Positions 15,493 to 64,000 of a DNA stretch of 64,000 bases are shown here, in pieces (position 1 is the stretch's first letter; every line of letters begins with the position of its first letter). The notes beneath the pieces are model-generated. The model saw nothing but the letters and a program-made list of their open reading frames with translations. It was not told the DNA's origin and searched no databases. The position numbers were made by a program, and so were the translations under genes. The DNA is from Deltaproteobacteria bacterium (lineage in GTDB: Bacteria > Desulfobacterota > Binatia > Binatales > Binataceae): the NCBI GenBank assembly GCA_021780755.1, contig JAJXYF010000010.1:173238-237237 (forward strand), given 5' to 3'.

Positions 15493-17088
15493 ATGGCATC
15501 GGCCCCGCAAAACTCGAACGAACTCGACCTCTGGCCTTACGAGGAGGCGCGCCGCCTGGCCGAGCGCGTCGGCGGCTATGAGCCCGCGCGCCCGGCGGTG
15601 TTCCAGAGCGGCTTCGGTCCATCAGGACTGCCGCATCTCGGAACGATGGGCGAGGTTTTGCGGCCGGCCTACGTACGCCATGCCTTTGGACTGCTATCGC
15701 CCGCGCGGCCCCAGCGCTTCGTGGTCTTTATCGACGACATGGACGGCCTGCGCAAGGTCCCCGAGAACATTCCGAATCGCGAGGCCTTCGCGCCTCATCT
15801 GGGCAAGCCGGTCTCGCGTATCCCCGACCCGTTTGGCGACTGCCACGACAGTTTCGCCTCGCACATGGTCTCGCTGCTGGGATCGTTCCTGGCCCCGGTC
15901 GAGGTTGAGTATGAACTGATGCGCTCGAGCGACGTGTACGGCAACGGGGCATTCGACGAGGCCCTCAAACTGGTGCTCGCGAAACATCAGGAGATCATTC
16001 GCATCGTCGCGCCTACGCTGCGCGAGGAAAATCGGGCCGGATGGTCGCCGGTGATGCCGCTGTGCCCGGCTTGCGGGCAGGTGAACTCGACGCTGGTGAC
16101 CGCGTACCATCCGGAGCGCGGCGCGGTCGAATTCTCCTGCGAGCGCAGTTTCGGCGGCGCCCACGGATGCGGCTTTCGCGGCGAGCAGAACATCCTGGGC
16201 GGGCGCGCCAAGGTGCAATGGAAGGTCGATTGGGCGCTGCGCTGGTACGTGCTCAAGGTCGATTACGAACTCTACGGCAAAGACCTCATCGACTCGGCGC
16301 GGCTCTCGGGCCAGATCGTAAAGCTGCTCGGCGGGCGGTCGCCGCTCGGCTTCGCCTTCGAGATGTATCTGGACGAAGAGGGCCACAAGGTCTCGAAGTC
16401 GGTCGGACGCGGGGTGGGCGTCGAACAGTGGCGGCGCTACGCGCCGATCGAGGTGCTCAAGTATTTTCTCATGCTGAATCCGCGCCGCGCGCGCAAATTG
16501 TTCCTCGAGGCGATTCCGCAATACGTCGATGAATACCTCGACGCGCTACGCGAATGGAGCACGGCCGAACCGGCGGCGCGCCGCAATTCGCCGCTCGAGT
16601 TCGTGCTGCAGCGCGACAGCGCGCGATGCTTCAATTCGTCCGTCACCTTCAGCCTGATTATGAACCTGGTGCCGGCGCTGGGCACGGCCGACCGCGACCT
16701 TATCTGGAATTATCTGGTCAATTACGATTCCGGAATTGCCGGCGACGCCCAGACCGAGGCGCTCGCACGCAACCTGATGGAATGCGCGCTGAACTTTTAT
16801 CGCGACTTTATCGAGCCGGCCAAGCAGCCCTATGCCCCGAGCGAGAGCGAACGCGCACAACTGCTAACGCTCGCAAGCTGGCTCGAGGCGAATAGCGGCG
16901 CGGCGGCCGAAGAGATCGAAAAGGCGATCTACGATATCGGTCGCGCCAATTACGACAAGCCCGGCAAGATCTTCCCGGTGATCTATCGCATGCTGATGGG
17001 ACAGGAGCGCGGCCCCCGCCTAGGCGCGTTCATCCGCCTGGCCACGCCGGGAAAGATCGCGCAAGCGCTGCAAACGTCGCTCGCCTGA
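15493..17088 (+). CDS. lysK: class I lysyl-tRNA synthetase (LysK type)
   Basis: Class I aaRS HIGH motif as HLG and KMSKS as KVSKS. Overall LysRS class I architecture. Internal Met MASAPQ with an AGGAAC RBS. Confidence 0.82.
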   Translation: MASAPQNSNELDLWPYEEARRLAERVGGYEPARPAVFQSGFGPSGLPHLGTMGEVLRPAYVRHAFGLLSPARPQRFVVFIDDMDGLRKVPENIPNREAFAPHLGKPVSRIPDPFGDCHDSFASHMVSLLGSFLAPVEVEYELMRSSDVYGNGAFDEALKLVLAKHQEIIRIVAPTLREENRAGWSPVMPLCPACGQVNSTLVTAYHPERGAVEFSCERSFGGAHGCGFRGEQNILGGRAKVQWKVDWALRWYVLKVDYELYGKDLIDSARLSGQIVKLLGGRSPLGFAFEMYLDEEGHKVSKSVGRGVGVEQWRRYAPIEVLKYFLMLNPRRARKLFLEAIPQYVDEYLDALREWSTAEPAARRNSPLEFVLQRDSARCFNSSVTFSLIMNLVPALGTADRDLIWNYLVNYDSGIAGDAQTEALARNLMECALNFYRDFIEPAKQPYAPSESERAQLLTLASWLEANSGAAAEEIEKAIYDIGRANYDKPGKIFPVIYRMLMGQERGPRLGAFIRLATPGKIAQALQTSLA

Positions 17089-17093
17089 GCGCT

Positions 17094-18242
17094 TCAGACG
17101 AATTCGGCGAAGATCGAATCGGCGAGTTCGAGGCCGCGCTCGCTCAGGCGGACGCGCCCGTCTTCACGCAGCAGCAGGCCGGCGTCGAAGAGGCTCACGG
17201 TCCGCGCCCCGAAGTGTGTGTCGAAGCTGACGCCGAACCGCAGCTCGAAATCCGATAGATCGAAACCTTCGCGCAAGCGCAGATTAAGAAAGACGAATTC
17301 CCCGGCCGCAATCTCCGCATCGACGGTTTCCGCACCCGCCTCCGCGAGACCGCCGGCGAGCGCCGCGGCGCTGTAGCGCGCGGGCATCCGCTCGTTCCAC
17401 CATCGCCGTCCGCCGGCGCCGTCGCGCGCGAAGCTGTGGGCGCCCGCACCGATACCTAGATAGCTCTGGCCGCGCCAGTAAGTCAGATTGTGGCGCGCTT
17501 CGTGGCCGGACTGCGCGTAATTCGAGATCTCGTACATCGGATAGCCGCGGCGCGGAAGTTCGTCGCGCACCAGCGCGTACATGGCGGCCTGATCGTCGTT
17601 GGGCAGCGGCATGATGCGTCCGCGCTTCATCTCGGTGAAGAACGCGGTGCCCTCCTCGAAGGTCAGGTTGTAGGCCGAGATATGGTCGGGACCGAGCGCG
17701 ATCGCCTCGGCGATATCGCCGCGCACGTCGTCGCCGGTCTGCCCGGGAACGGCGAAAATAAGGTCGAGGTTGAGGCGCTCGAAGCCCGCGCGACGGGCCT
17801 CGCGGGCCGCCTCACGAGTTTGGTCGGCGCTATGGATACGGCCGAGAAATTTCAGAATTACGGGATTGAACGACTGTGCGCCGAAGCTGATTCGGTTGAC
17901 GCCCGCCGCACGCATCCCGACCAGCTTGGAGAAATCGACCGTTCCCGGATTGCCCTCGAGCGTGATTTCGATGTCCGGCTCGAAGCCGAACCGGCGCTGC
18001 GCTGAATCAAGGATGCGGCCAATCGATCGCGGATCGAACAGCGATGGCGTGCCGCCGCCAAAGAAGATCGTGCGCAACGGATTGCCGTGCCACGTCGGTT
18101 CGGCCGCCCGCCGCTCCATCTCGGCGATCAGCGCGCGGACGTATTCATCCTCCGGCCACACCGCCGCCGCATGCGAATTGAAATCGCAGTACGGGCATTT
18201 CGAGTGGCACCACGGAATATGGATATAGAGCGAGAAACTCAT
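17094..18242 (-). CDS. hemW: radical SAM heme chaperone HemW / coproporphyrinogen III oxidase-like
   Basis: N-terminal CxxxCxxC radical-SAM motif (CHSKCPYC). HemN/HemW-like body. 382 aa. Confidence 0.85.
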   Translation of the reverse strand: MSFSLYIHIPWCHSKCPYCDFNSHAAAVWPEDEYVRALIAEMERRAAEPTWHGNPLRTIFFGGGTPSLFDPRSIGRILDSAQRRFGFEPDIEITLEGNPGTVDFSKLVGMRAAGVNRISFGAQSFNPVILKFLGRIHSADQTREAAREARRAGFERLNLDLIFAVPGQTGDDVRGDIAEAIALGPDHISAYNLTFEEGTAFFTEMKRGRIMPLPNDDQAAMYALVRDELPRRGYPMYEISNYAQSGHEARHNLTYWRGQSYLGIGAGAHSFARDGAGGRRWWNERMPARYSAAALAGGLAEAGAETVDAEIAAGEFVFLNLRLREGFDLSDFELRFGVSFDTHFGARTVSLFDAGLLLREDGRVRLSERGLELADSIFAEFV

Positions 18243-18310
18243 CGGACGGCTCAGGCAACCTGGCTAATATATCACGTCGGGCCGATCGCGCGTGCCATGC
18301 GCCGCAGGGT

Positions 18311-20032
18311 GTGGCTATAACACCCGCGGGCGTGCGGCTATACTTGCCGCGAATTTACAGAGGGGACCTTTCCAAAGTCGCTACCTATCACGAAGAGCCG
18401 CCGGTCGCGCCCGAGCCCGCGCCTGCCGCGCCGCCGGGCCGGCAGTCGGGCGCGGTTCGCTACAGCTCGAATCTTGCGGGGCTGGTGGCGGCAGGTATCC
18501 TGCTCAGCCGCATCGCGGGCCTGATCCGCGAAAGTATCTTCGCCCATTATCTTGGCAACTCCGCGGCGGCCGACGCCTTCAAGGCCGGCTTTCGCATTCC
18601 GAACATCCTGCAAAATCTGTTCGGCGAGGGCGTCCTGTCGGCCTCATTCATCCCGGTCTATAGCCGGCTGCTGGGCGAGGGCGACGAGGAGAGCGCGGAC
18701 CTGCTGGCGTGGGCGGTCGGCGCGATGCTCGCGCTGGCGATTGCGCTCTTCGTGATGCTGGGCGTGTTCGCCGCCCCGTATCTGATCGACGTAATCGCGC
18801 CGGGCTTCCATGGCGACAAGCGCGACCTGACGATCCGCCTCGTGCGGATTCTTTTTCCGGGCGCGGGCTTGCTGGTGATGTCGGCGTGGTGCCTGGGCGT
18901 GCTCAACAGCCATCATCGGTTTTTCGCGTCATATGCGGCGCCGGTCGCGTGGAACGTGGTGATGATCGGGGCATTGATCTGGTATGGGCCGCGCAGCACG
19001 CAGGACCGGCTCGCGATCCACCTCGCCTTCGCGTCGGTGGCTGGCGCGGCGCTGCAAATCGTCGTGCAATTGCCGCAGACGCTGCCGCTGCTCGGACGCC
19101 TGCGGTTGCATTTCGATCGCGTGCGCGACGCCTTGCGCACGGTCTTTCGCAACCTGTTGCCGGTGATCGTCGGACGCGGCGTTGGGCAGGTCAGCGGCTA
19201 CGTTGACAACCTGCTCGCGAGCCTGCTGCCGACCGGCGCGGTCGCGGCGATCAACTACGCGCAGATTCTCTACTTCCTGCCGGTCAGCCTCTTTGGCCTC
19301 TCGGTCGCGGCGGCGGAGCTGCCCTCGATGTCGCGCGCAACCGTCGCCACCAACGCCAGCGTCTATGAGGCGTTGCGCGCGCGGCTCAATGCGGGCCTGC
19401 GTCAGATCGCGTTTTTGGTGGTGCCGTCCTCAGTCGCATTCCTGCTCATCGGCGACGCGATCGTCACCCTGCTGTTCCAATCGGGCGCCTTCACCCATCG
19501 CGATGCTATTTACGTGTGGGCGACGGTCGCCGGCGTGTCGGTCGGGATGCTCGCGGGGACGACCGCGCGGCTCTATATTTCGGCCTTTTATGCGCTCTCC
19601 AATCCGCGCACACCGTTTCGCTTCGCGCTGGTGCGCGTCACGCTGACGCTGGTGCTGGGATATCTCTGCGCGATTCCGCTGCCGCATCTGATCGGTCTCG
19701 ATCAACGCTGGGGCGTCGTTGGCCTCACGGCGTCGGCTGGTGTTGCCGCGTGGGTCGAGTTCGTGATGTTGCGTCTGAGTCTCAACCGGCTGCTCGGATG
19801 GACCGGGATCGAGCGTCGCTATCTGATGCGGCTGTGGGCGATGGCGCTGACGGCCGCGGTTGCCGGTAACGCCCTGAAATATTCGTTACCGCATCGCGAG
19901 CCGCGGCTCGCGGCGCTCGCGGTGATCGTCGTTTATGGCGCGACCTACCTGGGACTGGCGTATGTGACCAACGAGCCGGAGCTCAAGCGTTTTGTCGATT
20001 ACGCGATGCGGCGTCTGCGGCGCCGCGGCTAG
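18311..20032 (+). CDS. murJ: lipid II flippase MurJ (MviN)
   Basis: 14-TM protein with MurJ N-terminal signatures (RIAGLIRESIFAHYLG..ADAF). The exact start is uncertain. Confidence 0.8.
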   Translation: MAITPAGVRLYLPRIYRGDLSKVATYHEEPPVAPEPAPAAPPGRQSGAVRYSSNLAGLVAAGILLSRIAGLIRESIFAHYLGNSAAADAFKAGFRIPNILQNLFGEGVLSASFIPVYSRLLGEGDEESADLLAWAVGAMLALAIALFVMLGVFAAPYLIDVIAPGFHGDKRDLTIRLVRILFPGAGLLVMSAWCLGVLNSHHRFFASYAAPVAWNVVMIGALIWYGPRSTQDRLAIHLAFASVAGAALQIVVQLPQTLPLLGRLRLHFDRVRDALRTVFRNLLPVIVGRGVGQVSGYVDNLLASLLPTGAVAAINYAQILYFLPVSLFGLSVAAAELPSMSRATVATNASVYEALRARLNAGLRQIAFLVVPSSVAFLLIGDAIVTLLFQSGAFTHRDAIYVWATVAGVSVGMLAGTTARLYISAFYALSNPRTPFRFALVRVTLTLVLGYLCAIPLPHLIGLDQRWGVVGLTASAGVAAWVEFVMLRLSLNRLLGWTGIERRYLMRLWAMALTAAVAGNALKYSLPHREPRLAALAVIVVYGATYLGLAYVTNEPELKRFVDYAMRRLRRRG

Positions 20033-56414: not shown

Positions 56415-58067
56415 TTGACGATTCCGGCTTACCACACGCCTGCGGCCGCGACGCCTGATGGCGCGCCCGATACCGCGGCGGCGCCGCGCCGCTCGCTGCT
56501 CCGCCACGCGCCCGCGATCGTGATCCTGCTGATCGTGGTTGCCGACGCCGCGCAGTTTCCGGACCCCGACCTGTGGGGCCATCTGCGCTTTGGGCAGGCC
56601 GCGCTCGCCAGCGGTCACGTGATCGTCCGTGACACATATTCCTACAGCGTGGCGGGCGGCGTCTGGCGCAATCACGAATGGCTCACCGAAATAGTCATGG
56701 CGCTCGCCTACAACAGTCTCGGCGTCTTCGGGCTCAAGTTATGGAAGTTCGCCTGCGTCGCCGCGACCATCTTGCTGATGGCGCTCGCACTCGCGGAGAC
56801 CGGCGCTTCCCCCGCGATTCAGATGAATACGCTCGGACTCGCCGCACTCGCGATGGTTCCGCAAAACCAGTTCCGCCCGCAGCTCTTCACCTTCATGCTC
56901 CTTGCCGCGACGCTCGCGTTGCTGACGCGGGACAATTATCGCGGTCGCGCACCGCTCTGGTTGATGGTTCCGATCATGGCGCTGTGGGGCAATCTGCACG
57001 GCGGCTTCATCATCGGTATCGCGACCCTCGCGACCTACGCCGGCGTCGTCGCCGTGCGGGATTGGCTCGCCGGGCGCGGCCTCGGCCGCGCGCTCCGCCT
57101 CGGCCTGATCGCGCTCGCCGGAACCCTGGCGACGCTGATCTCGCCATATGGCATCAACGCATGGCTCGTCGTGCTGAACGCGCTCAAGCATTCCGCAACC
57201 CAACCCGTCATCGCCGACTGGCAGCCCCTGCTCTCCGCGATCGCCCTGGGATGGAGCACGCATCCGGCCGACACCATCTTCTTTATCTGCGGGGCGCTCG
57301 TGATGTTCGCGTTCGCGCTGGTCTTCATCCGCACACCGCAGGCGGGCGACCTTCCGCTCGTTGCCATCGCGGCGATCTTGAGCGTTGCCGCCTTCATAGC
57401 GGTACGGAACATGCCGCTCGCGATGATCGCGTGCGCGGCGCCGCTCGCCCGTCACGTGGAGTTGCTCTTTGCGCGCCGGCGCGATCGCCAACTCGCGCAA
57501 GGTCTCGCCGGCCCCCCGGCGACCGGCGCCGACGACGCTGTCGCGGCGGCTGTGTCTGCCGACGATCGACCGGGCTCCAACCCATGGCTGGTCGCCTCTA
57601 TCGCGATCGTCCTTGCGCTCGTCAGCGGGATCTTCTCCACCCACATTTCCGTCGGCGCCGAATCTCCCGTCGGCGCTGCTGCCTTCATGCGCCGGCACGA
57701 CCTCCGTGGCAACATCCTCAGCGCCTTCGGCAACGGCGAATATCTGATTTGGCACCTCGCGCCCGCCTCCCGCGTCTTCATCGACGGGCGCTATGATACC
57801 GTCTATCCGCAACGGGTCGTCGATCAATACCTCGACTTCATCAACGCGCGACCCGACGCGCTGGCCGTCCTGCAAGCCTATCCTCACGACTTCGTGCTGG
57901 TGTCGGCCAACGGTCCCGCGCTCGGCGTTATGCGCCATGCGCCCGATTGGACGCTCATCTACCGCGATCCGCACTGGGTCCTTTTCGCGCGGGCGGATTC
58001 GGCCGCGGCGAAAATGCCCGGCGTCCCCTTCACGGGAAATCCGCCGCCCATCAGTAATTTTCCATGA
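56415..58067 (+). CDS. large integral membrane protein, paralog 1 of 3 (putative GT-C-like glycosyltransferase; family not assigned)
   Basis: 550 aa, ~10 TM helices. Shares conserved blocks with paralogs 2 and 3 (DxDLWGH.RFGQ, HEWL.E, LKLWKFAC, RPQLFTF, LWxNLHGGF, C-terminal FIDGRYDTVYP). TTG start. Confidence 0.8.
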   Translation: MTIPAYHTPAAATPDGAPDTAAAPRRSLLRHAPAIVILLIVVADAAQFPDPDLWGHLRFGQAALASGHVIVRDTYSYSVAGGVWRNHEWLTEIVMALAYNSLGVFGLKLWKFACVAATILLMALALAETGASPAIQMNTLGLAALAMVPQNQFRPQLFTFMLLAATLALLTRDNYRGRAPLWLMVPIMALWGNLHGGFIIGIATLATYAGVVAVRDWLAGRGLGRALRLGLIALAGTLATLISPYGINAWLVVLNALKHSATQPVIADWQPLLSAIALGWSTHPADTIFFICGALVMFAFALVFIRTPQAGDLPLVAIAAILSVAAFIAVRNMPLAMIACAAPLARHVELLFARRRDRQLAQGLAGPPATGADDAVAAAVSADDRPGSNPWLVASIAIVLALVSGIFSTHISVGAESPVGAAAFMRRHDLRGNILSAFGNGEYLIWHLAPASRVFIDGRYDTVYPQRVVDQYLDFINARPDALAVLQAYPHDFVLVSANGPALGVMRHAPDWTLIYRDPHWVLFARADSAAAKMPGVPFTGNPPPISNFP

Positions 58068-59644
58068 CCGCCGCCGTCAATTCGCGCTCGCTCCCGCCCG
58101 CGGCCTCGCTCCTGCGCTACGCGCCCGGCCTCGTCGCACTCATCATCGTCATCGCCGACTCCGGTCAAACCACCGATACCGATCTGTGGGGTCACATTCG
58201 CTTCGGCCAGGCCGTCATCGCCCTACACCATCTCGTACTTAAAGACCCATATTCCTACACTATGTATGGTAGCCCGTGGAGCAACCACGAATGGCTCACC
58301 GAGGTCGTGATGGCAGCCGCCTACAACGCCTTCGGCGTGGTCGGTCTCAAACTGTGGAAGTTCGCCTGTGCCGCCGCCACCATGCTGCTGGTCGTGACCG
58401 GCCTCGCCGAAACCCGCGCCACCCCCGCCGCGCAGCTCAACACGCTCACCGTTGTCGCGATCGCGATGATGCCGCAGATGGAGTTTCGCCCCCAGCTCTT
58501 CACGTTCATGCTCTTCGCCGCGATGATCGCGCTGCTCGCCCGCGATAATTATCGCGGCCATGCGCCGCTGTGGCTGGTCATCCCGATGATGGCGCTCTGG
58601 GCCAATCTCCACGGCGGCTTCATCATGGGCATCGCCGCGCTTGCGCTCTACGCCGGTGTCGTCGCAATCGGCGATCTGGCCGGCGGCGCCGGTCTCGCTC
58701 GCACCTTGCGCCTTGCCGCCCTGGCCGTTGCCGCGCTCATCGCCACCATGGCCACGCCCTATGGCCTCGAAACCTGGAGCCCCGTCCTCCACGCCCTGCG
58801 CAATCCGATGACCCGCATCGCCGTTACCGACTGGCAGCCGCTGCTCTTCGCGATGCTCCGGCAGTGGCGCGCGCAGCCCGCCGGCGTCATCTATATGCTC
58901 TGCGCCGTCGCCCTGATGTTCGCCTTCGTCTCGACCGTCGGCCTCGAACGCCGCGGCGGCGATTCGCCACTCATCGCCATCGCCGTCGTCATGTGCGTCG
59001 CCGCCTTCGTCGCCGTGCGCAATCTGCCGCTCGCGATCATCGCGTGCGCGCTGCCGGTCGCGCGCCACTCGTCGCTGCTGTTCGCCCATCTGCGCGAGCG
59101 CGCCGAGGCCGCCACCGGCGAGAAATTTGACGCCCCGTCCGCGCGTTCTTCCACCAGCCCGTGGCTTGCCGGTGGCATCGCGGCCGCACTCGCCGTCTAT
59201 AGCGGCATCTTCTCGCCGCGCCTACGGATGGATAAACCGTATCCGTCGGGCGCCGTCGCCTTTATGCGGGCGCATGATTTGCACGGTAACCTCCTCGCCG
59301 ATTTCGGCTGGGGCGAATATATGATCTGGCACACCGCCCCCGCCTCGAAGGTCTTCATCGACGGCCGCTACGACACCGTCTATCCATACACGCTGATCGA
59401 TCGCTATATCGATTTCTACTTCGACCGTCCCGGCGCAGCGGCCGTCCTGACCGCATACCCGCACGACTTGGTCCTTATTCCTCCCACCTCCCGCGCCTAT
59501 AATCTGATGTCGCGGCAGGCCGATTGGAAAATGATCTACCGCGACGCCGGCAGCGCGCTCTTCGCGCGCACTGCTTCGCCCGGCGCGCATATCGCCGGCG
59601 TTCCCGTCGCCGGCAACGCGCCCGAGGTCGCCTACTTCCCATGA
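58064..59644 (+). CDS. large integral membrane protein, paralog 2 of 3
   Basis: 526 aa. The ATG overlaps the paralog 1 stop (ATGA). About 60% identical to paralog 1 by eye over the N-terminal half. Confidence 0.85.
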   Translation: MTAAVNSRSLPPAASLLRYAPGLVALIIVIADSGQTTDTDLWGHIRFGQAVIALHHLVLKDPYSYTMYGSPWSNHEWLTEVVMAAAYNAFGVVGLKLWKFACAAATMLLVVTGLAETRATPAAQLNTLTVVAIAMMPQMEFRPQLFTFMLFAAMIALLARDNYRGHAPLWLVIPMMALWANLHGGFIMGIAALALYAGVVAIGDLAGGAGLARTLRLAALAVAALIATMATPYGLETWSPVLHALRNPMTRIAVTDWQPLLFAMLRQWRAQPAGVIYMLCAVALMFAFVSTVGLERRGGDSPLIAIAVVMCVAAFVAVRNLPLAIIACALPVARHSSLLFAHLRERAEAATGEKFDAPSARSSTSPWLAGGIAAALAVYSGIFSPRLRMDKPYPSGAVAFMRAHDLHGNLLADFGWGEYMIWHTAPASKVFIDGRYDTVYPYTLIDRYIDFYFDRPGAAAVLTAYPHDLVLIPPTSRAYNLMSRQADWKMIYRDAGSALFARTASPGAHIAGVPVAGNAPEVAYFP

Positions 59645-59678: not shown

Positions 59679-61277
59679 ATGCGTCCGATGAAACCGATCG
59701 CCGCACCGTCCCTGCTGCGCTACGCGCCCGCCTTCGTGTTTCTCGCGGTCGCGATCGCCGACGCCGGCCGCGTCGCTGACACCGACCTCTGGGGACACAT
59801 CGCGTTCGGCCGGCTCTTTCTCCGTGTCGGGCCAGTCAGCCACGACCCCTACAACTATTCGGTGCCTGGGCATGCATGGGCGGTTCACGAATGGCTCGCC
59901 GAAGTGATCATGGCGCGAACCTACGACACTTGCGGAATCCTTGGCCTGAAATTGTGGAAGTTCGCCTGCACCGCACTGACCATCATCATGCTCGCGATGG
60001 CCGCGGCCGAGACCGGCGCCGCACCGCCCCTTCAGGCCGCCGTGCTGGTCACCGCAGCCGTCGCGTTGATGCCGTTGATGCAATTCCGCCCTCAGCTCTA
60101 TACCTACATCTTCCTTGCCGCCCTCATGGCGTTGCTGGCACGTGATAATTACCGCCGCCGCGCACCACTCTGGCTCGTTGTTCCGGTCTTCGCGCTCTGG
60201 GCCAATCTGCACGGTGGTTTCGTCATCGGCGTTGCCGTGCTGGCGCTCTATGCCACTATCGTGTCGGCCGAGGACCTGATCGGCAGGCGCGGATTTCGCC
60301 GCGGCACCCGTCTGTTCGGCGTCACCCTCGCGGGCGCGGTCGCTACGCTGGCGAATCCCTACGGCGTCTATGCGTGGTCGCACGTTCTTGGCGCGCTCAA
60401 CGATCCGCTCACACGCAAGGCCATGGTCGATTGGCAGCCGTTGATCGTTGTCCTCGCGAATTCGCACGGGCTCCATTCGGGCGTCATCTTCTTCGCGCTG
60501 GTGGTCGCGATTCTTGTCGTCCTCGCACTGGCCGTTATCATCACTGCGCGCGGCGGCGATCTCCCGCTGATTGCGATCGCGGCCCTGATGGGCGCCGCCG
60601 CCTTCGACGTCGTGCGCAATATGCCGCTGGCGGTCATCGCCGCGGTCGCACCGCTCGCACGTCATCTGCATCTGATCGGCATCAAAATGCGCGCCGCCTC
60701 CGCACCCGCTTCAGCTATCGCAGAACCTGGACCCGCCGCGGTCACCCCCGCCCCTGCCGCCACCGAACCCGGCCATTTCAACCGCGCCGGCCAAATCGTG
60801 ATCGTCGCGGGCGCGCTGGTGTTGACGCTGGGCAAAGGCGGTCTGCTGTCGCCACGACTACCGGCGGCGATGAATTACCCGGTTGGCGCCATCGCATTCA
60901 TGCGCTCGCACCAACTGGGCGGCAACCTGTTGGCGCGCTTCGAATGGGGCCAGTATGCGATCTTTCACCTCACGCCCTCCTCGCGAATCTTCGTTGACGG
61001 TCGCGTTGATCTCGTTTATCCGCCGCAGGTGATCGACCAGTATGTGGATTTCTTCGCCGGGGCGCCCGGCGGCGCCCGCCTGCTCGACCGCTATCCACAC
61101 GACTACGTCTTGATGCCGTCCGGTTCGCCGGCCGACCGCACCGTCTCCGCGCGACCCGACTGGCGGCTGATCTACCGCGACCCGGTCGCGGTGCTCTTCG
61201 CCCGCGCGGGCGCGCCCGCCGCCCGCCTGCCCGGCGTGCCGTTCAAGGCGGCCGCCCCGACTTCCGATTTTCCCTGA
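59679..61277 (+). CDS. large integral membrane protein, paralog 3 of 3
   Basis: 532 aa with the same conserved blocks. Carries an extra Ala/Pro-rich linker (ASAPASAIAEPGPAAVTPAPAATEP). Confidence 0.85.
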   Translation: MRPMKPIAAPSLLRYAPAFVFLAVAIADAGRVADTDLWGHIAFGRLFLRVGPVSHDPYNYSVPGHAWAVHEWLAEVIMARTYDTCGILGLKLWKFACTALTIIMLAMAAAETGAAPPLQAAVLVTAAVALMPLMQFRPQLYTYIFLAALMALLARDNYRRRAPLWLVVPVFALWANLHGGFVIGVAVLALYATIVSAEDLIGRRGFRRGTRLFGVTLAGAVATLANPYGVYAWSHVLGALNDPLTRKAMVDWQPLIVVLANSHGLHSGVIFFALVVAILVVLALAVIITARGGDLPLIAIAALMGAAAFDVVRNMPLAVIAAVAPLARHLHLIGIKMRAASAPASAIAEPGPAAVTPAPAATEPGHFNRAGQIVIVAGALVLTLGKGGLLSPRLPAAMNYPVGAIAFMRSHQLGGNLLARFEWGQYAIFHLTPSSRIFVDGRVDLVYPPQVIDQYVDFFAGAPGGARLLDRYPHDYVLMPSGSPADRTVSARPDWRLIYRDPVAVLFARAGAPAARLPGVPFKAAAPTSDFP

Positions 61278-61397: not shown

Positions 61398-61489
61398 GGA
61401 GAGGTGGCAGAGCCCGGTTTAACGCGCACGCCTGGAACGCGTGTAGACTCGAAAGGGTCTCGGGGGTTCGAATCCCCCCCTCTCCGCCA
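61398..61489 (+). tRNA. tRNA-Ser (anticodon GGA), with encoded CCA
   Basis: 7-bp acceptor stem GGAGAGG/CCTCTCC, anticodon loop CCUGGAAC, long variable arm, T-loop GGTTCGAATCC, 3' GCCA. Confidence 0.8.
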
Positions 61490-61707
61490 CCGAGTCCCTA
61501 TCTCTGGCGACACTCCACTCGAATCACCGAAAAGCCCGCCCCAGCGGCGTCATTTGCAAATGTGTGGTCGCGGAGAAAACCACTTTCGAGCGGGTGACAC
61601 GCAATCCACGGCGAGAATCTCTGTTGGCAAATTCGGAGCGACCGTTTGGGCCGGGGGCGGAATGGAATTGAGGCGGAAGAAGCGGTGAGAAAGCCGGCAA
61701 GCGCTGA

Positions 61708-63429
61708 TTAGTTGATTCCGAGCGCCCGTTCCTGCTCGCTCCAAAGGAGCGGCAATTCGATCCGTTCAGTGAGAGCCTTCGCAGTAAGCTCCGGCGGCTG
61801 GTGACCCCCGACGATGGCCTCGACAATCCTCGGCGACAGGAACGCCAGCCGAGTCAGACGGCGGACGTAGTTCGGGAGCACCCCTTCACGCCTGGCGAGC
61901 GCTGCGACCGATTCCACTTGACCGCTCAGCAAATCGTCAGCCCATTGGCGTCCCCGCGCGATCGCTTTGATGAGCGCGAGATCGGCCAGTGGAGCTGGCG
62001 CGCGACTGCCCTGGAGAACCAGTCGCATTTCGAAGCCGCGCCGCCTGATCTGCATCGGGAAGACGCGCGTGATCGTGAGCGCAGTGGGGTTCGCACCGAG
62101 CTGCTTTTCCGAGATGGAAGTTGGCAGTTTGAGGGACACGCGAATACCTGTGTTGATGAGGTCGACACGATCGACCAGTGCATTCAGGGCGGGACCAACT
62201 TCAACCTCCGATTGCAGGCGCTTCATCCATGCCGCCGCGAGTGAGAACAGGGATGGCAGTTGGTGCTCGGCAAGATCGATTGCAACCGCTGCGTCTGCGA
62301 TCGCGGCTTCATCACCAAGCATCGTGGAGACCGCCGCCGCGGCGGCGCGTTCGATCTCAGGTGCTGGCAAGCGCCAACTGCTCCGCCGTGAATCCGATGT
62401 TCCGTTGATCAGATTGCGCGAGACGTAATAGCGATATCTCCGCTCGCCTTTGACCGCGTGACTGGGCGTCAGGCTCTGGCCGCTATGGTCGAACAGCTTA
62501 CCGGTCAGCGGACTTGGGGCTGATTTCCTTGCTCGTGGCGCATGTGTCGCCGCGTGGCTTCGCAGCATCAGCTGCGTACTGTCCCATAGATCGCGATCCA
62601 CGATCGGCTCATGGAGCCCCGGGTGGCGGACGCCCTTGTGGCGAATCTCGCCGATGTAAATGGGATTGGAGAGTGTCCCATAGAGCGCTCCTCGGAAGAA
62701 CGGGTTCCCGCCTGACTTGCGGCCATTGCTTGCGACCCGGGCTTTGGATCGGATGCAGCGGCGATTCAGATCCTCCATCAGGAGCCGGACCGACCCGAGT
62801 TCCAGGTAGCACCGGAAGATCTCACGCACCGTCTCGGCTTCCGCTTGATTCACGACAAGACGCCGGTCAATCGCGTCGTAACCGATCGGCACCACACCGC
62901 CCATCCACATACCCTTCTGCTTGGAGGCTGCGATCTTGTCGCGAATTCTTTCGCCCGTTACCTCGCGCTCGAACTGGGCGAACGACAGCAGTACATTGAG
63001 CGTCAGGCGTCCCATCGAGGTCGTCGTATTGAACTGCTGGGTGACGGCCACGAATGAGACACCGCGCGCGTCGAACACTTCGACCATCTTGGCAAAGTCG
63101 GTGAGCGAGCGGGTCAGGCGGTCGACCTTGTAGACCACCACGACATCGATCAGCCCTTGACTGATATCAGCGAGCAGACGCTGGAGCGCCGGTCGTTCCA
63201 TCGTCCCGCCTGACAGACCGCCGTCGTCGTAAGCAGTTTTGACCAGGCGCCATCCTTCACCGGCCTGGCTCTTGATGAACGCTTCGCAGGCCTCGCGCTG
63301 CGCATGTAGCGAGTTAAAATCCTGTTCCAGTCCTTCCTCGGAAGATTTGCGCGTGTAGATCGCGCAGCGGCGAACCGGTGTCTTACCTTGCTGCATGGTT
63401 GTTCTCCATAACCTGCGATCGTAGTCCAA
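61708..63429 (-). CDS. large serine recombinase (resolvase/invertase catalytic domain + recombinase + zinc-ribbon/coiled-coil domains)
   Basis: N-terminal CAIYTRKSSEE...DGGLSG catalytic serine motif, then the recombinase domain. 573 aa. Oriented toward the tRNA. Confidence 0.9.
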   Translation of the reverse strand: MDYDRRLWRTTMQQGKTPVRRCAIYTRKSSEEGLEQDFNSLHAQREACEAFIKSQAGEGWRLVKTAYDDGGLSGGTMERPALQRLLADISQGLIDVVVVYKVDRLTRSLTDFAKMVEVFDARGVSFVAVTQQFNTTTSMGRLTLNVLLSFAQFEREVTGERIRDKIAASKQKGMWMGGVVPIGYDAIDRRLVVNQAEAETVREIFRCYLELGSVRLLMEDLNRRCIRSKARVASNGRKSGGNPFFRGALYGTLSNPIYIGEIRHKGVRHPGLHEPIVDRDLWDSTQLMLRSHAATHAPRARKSAPSPLTGKLFDHSGQSLTPSHAVKGERRYRYYVSRNLINGTSDSRRSSWRLPAPEIERAAAAAVSTMLGDEAAIADAAVAIDLAEHQLPSLFSLAAAWMKRLQSEVEVGPALNALVDRVDLINTGIRVSLKLPTSISEKQLGANPTALTITRVFPMQIRRRGFEMRLVLQGSRAPAPLADLALIKAIARGRQWADDLLSGQVESVAALARREGVLPNYVRRLTRLAFLSPRIVEAIVGGHQPPELTAKALTERIELPLLWSEQERALGIN

Positions 63430-63862
63430 AGAAACGCGGCCCGGACCATCGAGTGCCGGTGATCTCGCGCGCGACTTCGGAGAGCGAACGGTAACGCTTC
63501 CCCTTGAAGGACACGCCGTCGTCGAGCATCGTCACCCGGTGAGCGGTACCATGCCATTCGCGGATCAGGATGGTTCCCGTTTGCGCCATTCGCGTCTGGG
63601 GCCTCTTCGATGATCCAGTCGCTCTCTCTTCTGCCGCCCGGGCGAGCAGGCGGGAGGTCGGGGGCTTGATTCCGCCGTAAGCCCGCTCCTGCAGATGGCA
63701 GGCGATTGCTCGGGTCAGAAAGGAGCGGCCGGTTTCTCGGGAAGGCGCCTTTCCGCAAATGGCTTTCCAGCGCTCCCGGAGTTCATCGATATCGAGTTTC
63801 GCGAGGCTCGCAATTTCCGCGGCAAGCGTCTCACCGCCAAGAGCAGGCGACCGCCGCTTCAT
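63383..63862 (-). CDS. DUF2924-like protein (commonly paired upstream of serine recombinases in integrative elements)
   Basis: 159-aa ORF overlapping the recombinase start by 47 bp. Assignment by resemblance only. Confidence 0.5.
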   Translation of the reverse strand: MKRRSPALGGETLAAEIASLAKLDIDELRERWKAICGKAPSRETGRSFLTRAIACHLQERAYGGIKPPTSRLLARAAEERATGSSKRPQTRMAQTGTILIREWHGTAHRVTMLDDGVSFKGKRYRSLSEVAREITGTRWSGPRFFGLRSQVMENNHAAR

Positions 63863-64000
63863 AAGGGGTCCTCCGCGTATCTTGGCGCACTCAGGTCAGC
63901 TGCAAGGTCCATGTGTGGTCCTCCGTTGGAGCGGAAATCCGATCGCTCCATTGACACACACATTGCTCGATTCGCGCAGCACAGCCAGTCCTTCGGACGT

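Follow-up and report, generated by a model that had tools for sequence, protein, structure and literature searches.

The 64,000-nucleotide stretch of contig JAJXYF010000010.1 that we analyzed (the window) carries near its right edge a tRNA-Ser(GGA) gene followed, on the opposite strand, by genes for a large serine recombinase and a DUF2924 protein. These features, at positions 61398-64000, likely mark the tRNA-side junction at which an integrative genomic island of ~15.05 kb meets the chromosome of a Binataceae-like bacterium. An initial annotation, made from the letters alone, had already placed the boundary of an integrated element here, with its cargo to the right. That proposal is borne out by a step in GC content, by the end of synteny at the tRNA, by the recombinase not being a core gene of relatives, and by a candidate right end. 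The element is of an ordinary kind, but its integrase is of a kind uncommon at tRNA sites.

Results

The tRNA-Ser(GGA) gene and its flanks in relatives

The only tRNA that ARAGORN finds in the window is tRNA-Ser(gga), at 61398-61489 on the forward strand. It scores 48.8 bits against the Rfam tRNA model (gathering score 29), the sole Rfam family of the window, and it is intact, with an encoded CCA in a 3' end that reads ...CTCTCCGCCA. This gene, the 218 bp that follow it and the recombinase gene converging on it had all been described in the initial annotation, and ARAGORN, Rfam and Pfam place each of them exactly where it had been read.

To the left of the tRNA lie three tandem paralogous genes on the forward strand (open reading frames [ORFs] 56415-58067, 58064-59644 and 59679-61277). 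They encode polytopic membrane proteins of ~530-550 amino acids (aa) with mutual identities of 45-55%, and the one of the three that was searched against Pfam matches no family. With the last paralogue as a query, we found 14 loci in genome collections (Candidatus Binataceae or "uncultured delta proteobacterium"), and in 10 of these the array is followed by tRNA-Ser(gga). The recurrence of the same tRNA after the same array in 10 Binataceae genomes supports its reading as the integration target. In the related genomes the array has two to five copies, always with tRNA-Ser(gga) at its end.

Synteny with the related genomes breaks exactly at this tRNA. To its right, no gene is common to the 10 relatives or to the window, recombinase-related pieces excepted, and the genes found there in relatives have assorted accessory functions. 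Composition changes at the same point, with GC falling 4-10 points at the tRNA in most of the ten related loci and, in the window, from 0.66-0.69 in the 10 kb to the left to 0.60-0.62 between the tRNA and the window end. Because the relatives share no right-side genes and GC mostly drops there, the site acts as a general hotspot of foreign DNA, and the recombinase does not belong to the core genes. When the left-flank protein was looked up by exact match, every contig returned broke off within the tRNA or at its end, and such contigs are uninformative as to an empty site. Four of them, from other assemblies of the same population (L198-L201), stop at window-equivalent positions 61403-61487. 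Since they end inside or at the tRNA 3' end, that segment is an assembly break point, owing to a repeat or to population heterogeneity.

The integration module

The recombinase ORF occupies 61708-63429 on the reverse strand and specifies 573 aa when counted from a TTG start. An ATG at 63396 gives 562 aa; this start is used by the public gene call and is matched by the N-termini of relatives in alignment. The exact 562-aa product occurs in five public contigs, and an exact look-up of the 573-aa product in public assemblies returned no match. Because public records hold the 562-aa form only and the relatives' N-termini fit the ATG, 562 aa (61708-63396) is the more likely length. The initial annotation's figure of 573 residues is therefore probably too high.

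Pfam recognizes a Resolvase domain (PF00239, 2.2e-39) over aa 23-175 of the 573-aa ORF and, after this catalytic domain, a Recombinase domain (PF07508, 7.7e-13), and the motif YTRKSS can be read from the sequence. Matches to PDB sequences (the TP901-1, A118, phiC31 and SPbeta integrases) are confined to aa 9-277; they include the TP901-1 catalytic domain (1.9e-22) and the structure of the A118 integrase C-terminal domain (aa 171-277, 2e-3). The top NCBIfam matches are CcrB and XisF, both far under their cut-offs. Sequence comparison identifies the first ~290 residues as those of a large serine recombinase. The C-terminal ~270 residues match nothing, and the usual cysteines are absent; the stretch LTGKLFDHSGQSL..RYRYYVS contains none. 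It is the sole integrase-like gene in ~19 kb to the right of the tRNA, and it most likely encodes the enzyme that integrated the island. No directionality factor was identified for it.

Directly upstream and on the same strand, ORF 63383-63862 encodes a 159-aa protein that matches PF11149 (DUF2924) with 1.2e-44 and 152.3 bits against a cut-off of 31.2, spanning positions 2-135 of 135 in the model. The end of this gene and the recombinase ATG overlap by 14 nt; an overlap at the recombinase start was also described in the initial annotation, and the two genes are probably translationally coupled. A homologue search yields >4,400 DUF2924 proteins. The literature mentions that we found for the family come from Wolbachia work only, in which part of DUF2924 has been equated with the RAMA DNA-binding domain (PMC11342252). 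An AlphaFold model (pLDDT 64.7) has an N-terminal helical domain and a small beta-rich C-terminal domain, and a fold search of this model against the PDB gave no significant match, for which reason the function of the protein is one that we infer. The domain match, the gene pairing in relatives and the AF2 model are consistent with a presumed DNA-binding accessory factor for the recombinase.

Upstream of the DUF2924 gene, positions 63863-63992 (reverse strand) appear to be a conserved 5' leader or promoter region at the inner end of the shared module. This limit comes from blastn comparisons with P0011-type elements. Through DUF2924 homologues at 92% identity we reached elements with a module that matches the window at 86-90% identity between 63992 and 61483 or 61466, and beyond 63992 the cargo differs. 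The last positions of the window, 63993-64000, are accordingly the start of a cargo region that continues, in contigs L004 and L180, to window-equivalent position ~76542.

The last part of the module is the 218-bp spacer between the recombinase stop and the tRNA (61490-61707, reverse strand). The whole ~220 nt past the recombinase stop is conserved among relatives, and an nhmmer profile of the spacer finds matches behind the recombinase in ~30 loci of differing context. Because this conservation after the recombinase extends to relatives that have no tRNA there, the alignment assigns the spacer to the element and not to host DNA. Its conserved blocks are AACAGAGA, TTCTCCG and GACT-N3-TGG, the last of which recurs family-wide, and a terminator scan places a terminator-like hairpin at 61593-61580 on the reverse strand. 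The ~220 nt are kept down to ~55% recombinase identity and contain repeated CRGAGA-like motifs. The recombinase or DUF2924 may bind at sites within the spacer. A structured RNA was considered for this region and rejected: no Rfam family matches, the RNAalifold energies of the two strands are only -7 and -4.5 kcal/mol, and folded as a single sequence the spacer does not outperform its shuffled versions (z = +0.99).

Parts of this module are found at the same tRNA in other Binataceae. Recombinase-related sequence is present there in 4 of 11 genomes, intact in three and as a remnant in the fourth. The gene is intact in the window and in locus L008, which also has an extra 3' fragment; it is intact in L016, in the orientation opposite to the window's; and L007 has decayed fragments oriented as in the window. 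The nhmmer profile also detects orphan spacer remnants directly after the tRNA in L016, in L008 and, weakly, in L010. In L008, a 150-bp direct repeat (97% identity; 16934-17083 and 19623-19772) formed by the final 49 codons of the recombinase gene lies on either side of a gene for a 769-aa membrane protein. The tRNA-proximal copy retains the spacer and the full-length recombinase gene has none, an arrangement unexplained by simple tandem integration. In L016, the DUF2924-recombinase pair (16380-18966) lies inverted beside the same tRNA with an orphan spacer remnant (16458-16631) between pair and tRNA, which suggests rearrangement or inversion at the hotspot.

Recurrence of the layout among related recombinases

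With the recombinase as a query, we collected 80 metagenomic and 80 IMG/VR loci at 40-88% identity. Of the 147 recombinase copies in these 160 related loci that could be scored, 146 are immediately preceded by a DUF2924 gene on the same strand. Downstream, 105 copies could be scored, having at least 330 nt after the recombinase stop. A complete convergent tRNA lies within 700 nt of the stop in 23 of these, and a T-arm motif lies within the same distance in 32, compared with 3.5% of control 700-nt tiles. The tRNAs are of several species, namely, Ser (gga, gct, cga and tga), Gln, Met, Asp and Val, and the distances from recombinase stop to tRNA end cluster at 163-276 nt, a range that includes the 218 nt of the window. 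Overall, roughly a third of copies have a convergent tRNA or a tRNA 3' fragment 160-280 nt past the stop. The DUF2924 pairing and the tRNA and T-arm counts across related loci argue against chance, and the tRNA-adjacent layout is a property of this recombinase clade rather than an accident of one genome. The layout had been called classic in the initial annotation. It is indeed that of an element boundary, but it is classic for tyrosine integrases, for which integration into tRNA genes is textbook behavior, and rare for large serine recombinases.

In several relatives the spacer is followed by a partial tRNA that extends from the CCA across the T arm, in certain cases as far as the variable arm or anticodon loop, and then by a conserved "far-end" sequence, GGGGCGGAATTCGGCCCGAGTTTGGCGCACTATTCGG... 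To judge from these sequences, the order of spacer, partial tRNA and far end is the expected look of an attP or of a junction between tandem elements. Locus L036 has a complete element of ~5.9 kb between a partial tRNA with far end and a full tRNA-Ser(cga), and the spacer of a second element lies beyond it. Two modules in tandem occur at many related loci. Five IMG/VR contigs (L116, L118, L120, L121 and L153) have tandem units of DUF2924 gene, recombinase gene, spacer and partial tRNA in which the next DUF2924 gene begins only ~300 nt past the partial tRNA; these units are near-cargo-free mini-elements.

Position of the crossover

Elements that carry the module away from tRNA genes help to bound the crossover. 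In three independent non-tRNA contexts (L185/L188; L183/L187/L190/L192; L100), similarity to the window stops after GGTGGCGGA(G), 7-8 nt inside the tRNA 3' end, and beyond this point there is a loose T-arm mimic and no tRNA. Because similarity ends there, the crossover probably lies no deeper than ~7 nt into the tRNA. Candidate virgin trailers in L006 and L014 have no GACT motif, and for this reason we place it within TCCGCCA or at the trailer boundary. The junction comparisons thus point to 61483-61496 as the putative crossover zone (attL core), made up of TCCGCCA, the last ~7 nt of the tRNA, and CCGAGTC, the start of the trailer. The terminal nucleotides of tRNA-Ser(GGA) probably now come from the element. 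The initial annotation had expected the attachment-site core inside the 218-bp spacer, an expectation that does not hold, as the spacer is conserved element DNA of which at most the last few nucleotides belong to the core.

A crossover in the T loop had been entertained on account of a T-stem mismatch in attP-like junctions and of the limit of tRNA likeness at the right end; it was given up, as divergence is already present 7-8 nt from the 3' end. A scan for dyad symmetry recovered the T-arm hairpin alone and no center. If the crossover is placed as above, the predicted attP of the excised circle would read ...CATGGGGTCGCCAGTTCAAATCCCTTTTG joined to CTCCGCCACCGAGTCCCTATCTCTGGCG..., and the predicted restored attB would be the tRNA ...GGTTCGAATCCCCCCCTCTCCGCCA joined to TTCAGTCCGCCGCTTTTCG...

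Extension to the right and a candidate right end

Exact look-up of the recombinase and DUF2924 proteins, with a homologue search for a downstream protein, led to two metagenome contigs, L004 and L180, whose identity to the window is 99.96-100% and which continue ~16.9 kb past its end. L180 coordinates convert to window coordinates by the addition of 62071. Along this extension, GC is 0.61 in the module, 0.555 in the cargo and 0.627 beyond the cargo.

A profile of the far-end sequence matches L180 at 14417-14374, in the expected orientation, with E = 0.011 (1.6 Mb searched). Thirty nucleotides from this match, at L180 14448-14471 (window-equivalent 76519-76542), lies a tRNA-3'-like fragment, GTTCAAATCCCTTTTGCTCCACCA, that agrees with the 3' end of the host tRNA at 17 of 25 positions and differs from it mainly by transitions, so that the repeat is inexact. 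It is followed by TTCAGTCC and a weak spacer-like remnant (E = 0.009), in a region with 67% identity to the sequence downstream of the recombinase in a different type of element (L183). Far-end match, tRNA fragment and spacer remnant stand in the order and orientation expected of a right junction, and with moderate confidence we take them as a candidate right end ~15.05 kb away (a displacement of 15,053 bp). The initial annotation had anticipated a direct repeat of the tRNA end on this side. A search of the first 10 kb to the right found no tRNA or spacer copy, and the counterpart ~15 kb on is this diverged 17/25 fragment and not an exact repeat.

Downstream of the cargo operon there are an rve fragment, a helix-turn-helix (HTH) gene and a Mu-type transposase gene. 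The interval L180 14447-18814 (window-equivalent 76518-80885) has the look of older-element remnants, with spacer-like sequence, the HTH gene, an RNase H-like fragment and the Mu-type transposase. Two independent assemblies stop at the identical base by the transposase, which suggests a repeat. Neither a tyrosine integrase nor a phage structural gene was found in the ~19 kb to the right of the tRNA.

The cargo operon

To the right of DUF2924, eight co-directional, tightly packed genes form an operon at L180 2421-13520 (window-equivalent 64492-75591). Its products are, in order, a small membrane protein of 143 aa; a divergent FtsZ/tubulin-like protein of 489 aa; three proteins of 1124, 299 and 473 aa with no family match; a ZorA-like MotA/ExbB protein of 674 aa with a long coiled coil; a ZorB-like OmpA/MotB protein of 224 aa; and a PLD-family nuclease of 255 aa (L180 12753-13520). 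The 674-aa protein matches Pfam MotA_ExbB with 25.8 bits against a cut-off of 22.9 and ZorA models weakly (2e-4 to 5e-4), its neighbor matches a ZorB1 model with 3.5e-11, and the nuclease matches DrmC models with 3e-15. Five of the eight have no match in Pfam, NCBIfam or PADLOC, PDB sequence searches with the 1124-aa and 473-aa proteins found none, and PADLOC detects no ZorC, ZorD, ZorE, ZorF or ZorG among the eight genes. Residues 211-252 of the nuclease match the NCBIfam "sunset" domain (7.6e-8, above its cut-off), which is otherwise listed in variant ribosomal proteins.

Both the ZorA-like and the tubulin-like families are rare, with 9 and 21 matches, respectively. A 56%-identical relative (L196) has the same seven-gene order with a PLD gene nearby, in a defense-rich neighborhood. 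The model of the 489-aa protein (pLDDT 79, pTM 0.84) matches structures of the tubulin/FtsZ superfamily only, the best being CetZ2 (probability 1.00, E = 1.7e-3, TM-scores 0.30/0.43), and the protein has a GGTAGGTGPG signature. Judged from this model, it has the tubulin/FtsZ fold.

Most likely, the operon encodes an anti-phage system, a candidate new one related to Zorya and FtsZl1 operons. It resembles Zorya in that a MotA/ExbB-like protein whose tail is a long coiled coil precedes one of OmpA/MotB type; its match to ZorA is weak (E ~2e-4). Unlike Zorya, it has none of the type I-III effectors and has instead a PLD nuclease and five further genes without a family match, and by gene content it fails the definition of Zorya types I-III. 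The FtsZl1-vWA-OmpA operons described by Makarova and Koonin in 2010 (PMC2875224) similarly combine a divergent FtsZ/tubulin-like protein with an OmpA-family protein in one operon, but the vWA domain that they contain was not detected by Pfam in the cargo.

Discussion

We propose that the integration module consists of the leader, the DUF2924 gene, the recombinase gene and the ~220-nt spacer, abutting the 3' end of tRNA-Ser(GGA), and that the recombinase, probably aided by DUF2924, would join a circular element to the chromosome. On the element, the site would combine three pieces: the end of the spacer (GACT-N3), a duplicate of the tRNA 3' terminus and, at the far end of the island, a degenerate sequence that mimics the T arm. 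A crossover at the very 3' terminus of the tRNA gene, within the final ~7 nt or where the trailer begins, would let the element supply the terminal nucleotides of the tRNA and a new trailer, and the previous trailer would be moved ~15 kb off. That trailer would itself have belonged to an older element of the same kind, now decayed, the first occupant of this tRNA.

Several points weigh against this account. The initial annotation had proposed a comparison of the site with related genomes; this bears it out in that no right-side gene is shared and the recombinase is not core, but an empty site with a conserved right flank was not found in the relatives or in the same metagenomes, so that insertion is inferred, not directly seen. 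The host flank past the island was never reached, both long contigs stopping at the Mu-like transposase gene, and our confidence in the right end is moderate, given that it is drawn from two weak profile matches and a diverged fragment. The displaced fragment is inexact relative to the present tRNA, a mismatch to be explained either by decay or by a junction imported with the element. Within the identity block the exact crossover is unreadable, which leaves the T loop some residual probability. Neither a zinc ribbon nor a coiled coil was detected in the recombinase by sequence (Pfam at E <= 0.01; PDB sequences, none past aa ~290). Close relatives share the 2.5-kb module only and differ in cargo, so that module and cargo may have been acquired separately.

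The last point invites an account in which a mini-element of ~2.6 kb, comprising DUF2924, recombinase and spacer, landed alone at the tRNA, and the ZorAB-like operon came from one or more older islands. The relatives that are 86-90% identical over 61466/61483-63992 and carry other cargo fit this account, as do the IMG/VR tandem units with almost no cargo from partial tRNA to next DUF2924 gene and the difference in GC between module (0.61) and cargo (0.555). Against it, there is no far-end motif or tRNA fragment from DUF2924 to the cargo, nor within L180 1791-14300, and the sole far-end-like match sits past the PLD gene and an insertion sequence (IS) fragment. The elements of L036 and L100, moreover, carry cargo between far end and DUF2924. 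We regard a separate arrival as unlikely, though worth keeping in mind. We give a much slimmer chance to integration by another enzyme, a tyrosine integrase or a transposase at an unseen far end, with the serine recombinase as a passenger resolvase or invertase. The unreached right flank, the rve and Mu-type transposase fragments further right and the inverted module beside the same tRNA in L016 would all be compatible with such an enzyme. Against it, no tyrosine integrase lies within ~19 kb, the module keeps a fixed distance and orientation from tRNA 3' ends in many lineages and with several tRNA species, and it carries a copy of the tRNA terminus even in non-tRNA contexts.

That the window edge is the end of a prophage might be supposed from the nearest annotated relatives of the recombinase, which belong to the temperate phages AcaML1 and Wolbachia WO, and from the many related contigs filed in IMG/VR. 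The ~19 kb to the right have no phage structural or replication domain and consist of membrane, MotAB-like, PLD and transposase-related genes, making a prophage very improbable. Least credible is that the recombinase and DUF2924 are resident core genes, such as a chromosomal invertase system, which by chance lie near a tRNA. Nothing beyond their presence speaks for this, and it is refuted by their being absent, decayed or rearranged at this site in most relatives; the compositional break and the >4,400 DUF2924 and hundreds of recombinase homologues in unrelated contexts argue likewise. An integrative island of ~15.05 kb that entered through the action of its own serine recombinase is the explanation that we prefer.

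Genomic islands at tRNA genes, serine integrase modules and a phage precedent at a transfer-messenger RNA (tmRNA) gene are known already. Of moderate interest are the evidence that an entire clade of DUF2924-coupled serine recombinases uses tRNA 3' ends, and the uncharacterized ZorAB/tubulin-like/PLD operon carried as cargo. This locus and ~150 relatives have a coherent anatomy: the geometry is fixed, the spacer is conserved, a copy of the tRNA terminus travels with the module and tandem arrays occur. We tentatively suggest, as a possibility slightly less likely than not, that DUF2924-coupled recombinases are a large, environmentally abundant clade of serine integrases specialized for the extreme 3' ends of tRNA and tmRNA genes, that their attP joins a conserved ~220-nt spacer ending in GACT-N3 to a duplicated tRNA terminus and to a degenerate imitation of the T arm, and that DUF2924 is their obligatory DNA-binding partner. 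If true, this would be a second independent solution, besides that of tyrosine integrases, for entering tRNA genes without destroying them, and it would explain the stacking of islands in tandem at one tRNA. Experimental confirmation would provide serine integrases with universally conserved landing genes, of practical interest for genome engineering.

Comparison with known systems

The closest parallel that we found is the Acidithiobacillus phage AcaML1. Its recombinase is 48.8% identical to that of the window over aa 9-423, and a DUF2924 homologue, Gp4, lies directly upstream of Gp3/Gp2, which are annotated as "site specific recombinase large/small subunit"; the C-terminal part of the AcaML1 recombinase, unlike here, is annotated as separate ORFs. 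AcaML1 is reported to be integrated at the tmRNA gene with 10-bp repeats (PMC3826726). From that paper and the GenBank record, the repeat CCACCATTTA lies at the tmRNA 3' end, and the record has TAAATGGTGG at both ends, which comprises the 6 terminal nt of the tmRNA plus 4 nt of trailer; a T-arm-like sequence follows the far end. In both elements, the module is a few hundred nucleotides from the element end and the target is the 3' end of a tRNA-like gene. By analogy, the AcaML1 precedent matches the geometry proposed for this island. The two differ in that AcaML1 is a 59-kb inducible prophage at a tmRNA gene, whereas the island has no phage genes and is at tRNA-Ser, and the spacer profile finds no match in AcaML1. 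Wolbachia phage WO has the same two-gene order (gp30-gp31), but its sequences are much more distant, with 35% identity over the full-length recombinase and 30% for DUF2924. It is a prophage, ARAGORN finds no tRNA in the WO stretch examined, and the WO record calls its own phage-host boundary unclear.

With the well-studied serine integrases (phiC31, Bxb1, TP901-1, A118, SPbeta SprA and SCCmec CcrAB), the recombinase shares the resolvase domain with its YxRxS motif, the Recombinase domain, a length of >500 aa and the position of its gene at the element end beside the att site. The studied members have a Cys-rich zinc ribbon with a coiled coil, in contrast to this protein, in which nothing is recognizable past aa ~290, and, Wolbachia WO excepted, they are not paired with DUF2924. 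Their targets are protein-coding genes or intergenic sites and not tRNA genes (PMC7192596). In 2020 the use of tRNA genes by such enzymes, "not known for targeting tRNA genes," counted as previously unreported; 14 of 297 computational calls in that survey pointed to it, and experimental proof was asked for.

In architecture, the island resembles the Islander-type islands of tyrosine integrases, which likewise have an intact tRNA at one end with a convergent integrase gene adjacent, a replacement copy of the tRNA 3' end, a displaced 3' fragment (in this island a diverged candidate), tandem accretion and a compositional break. The enzyme family is unrelated to the serine recombinase found here. 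The identity block of Islander-type islands runs from the anticodon or T loop to the 3' end of the tRNA, whereas here it apparently spans a minimum of 7-10 nt at the extreme 3' end, and the far end of the elements described here has a degenerate T-arm mimic that at no stage enters the tRNA.

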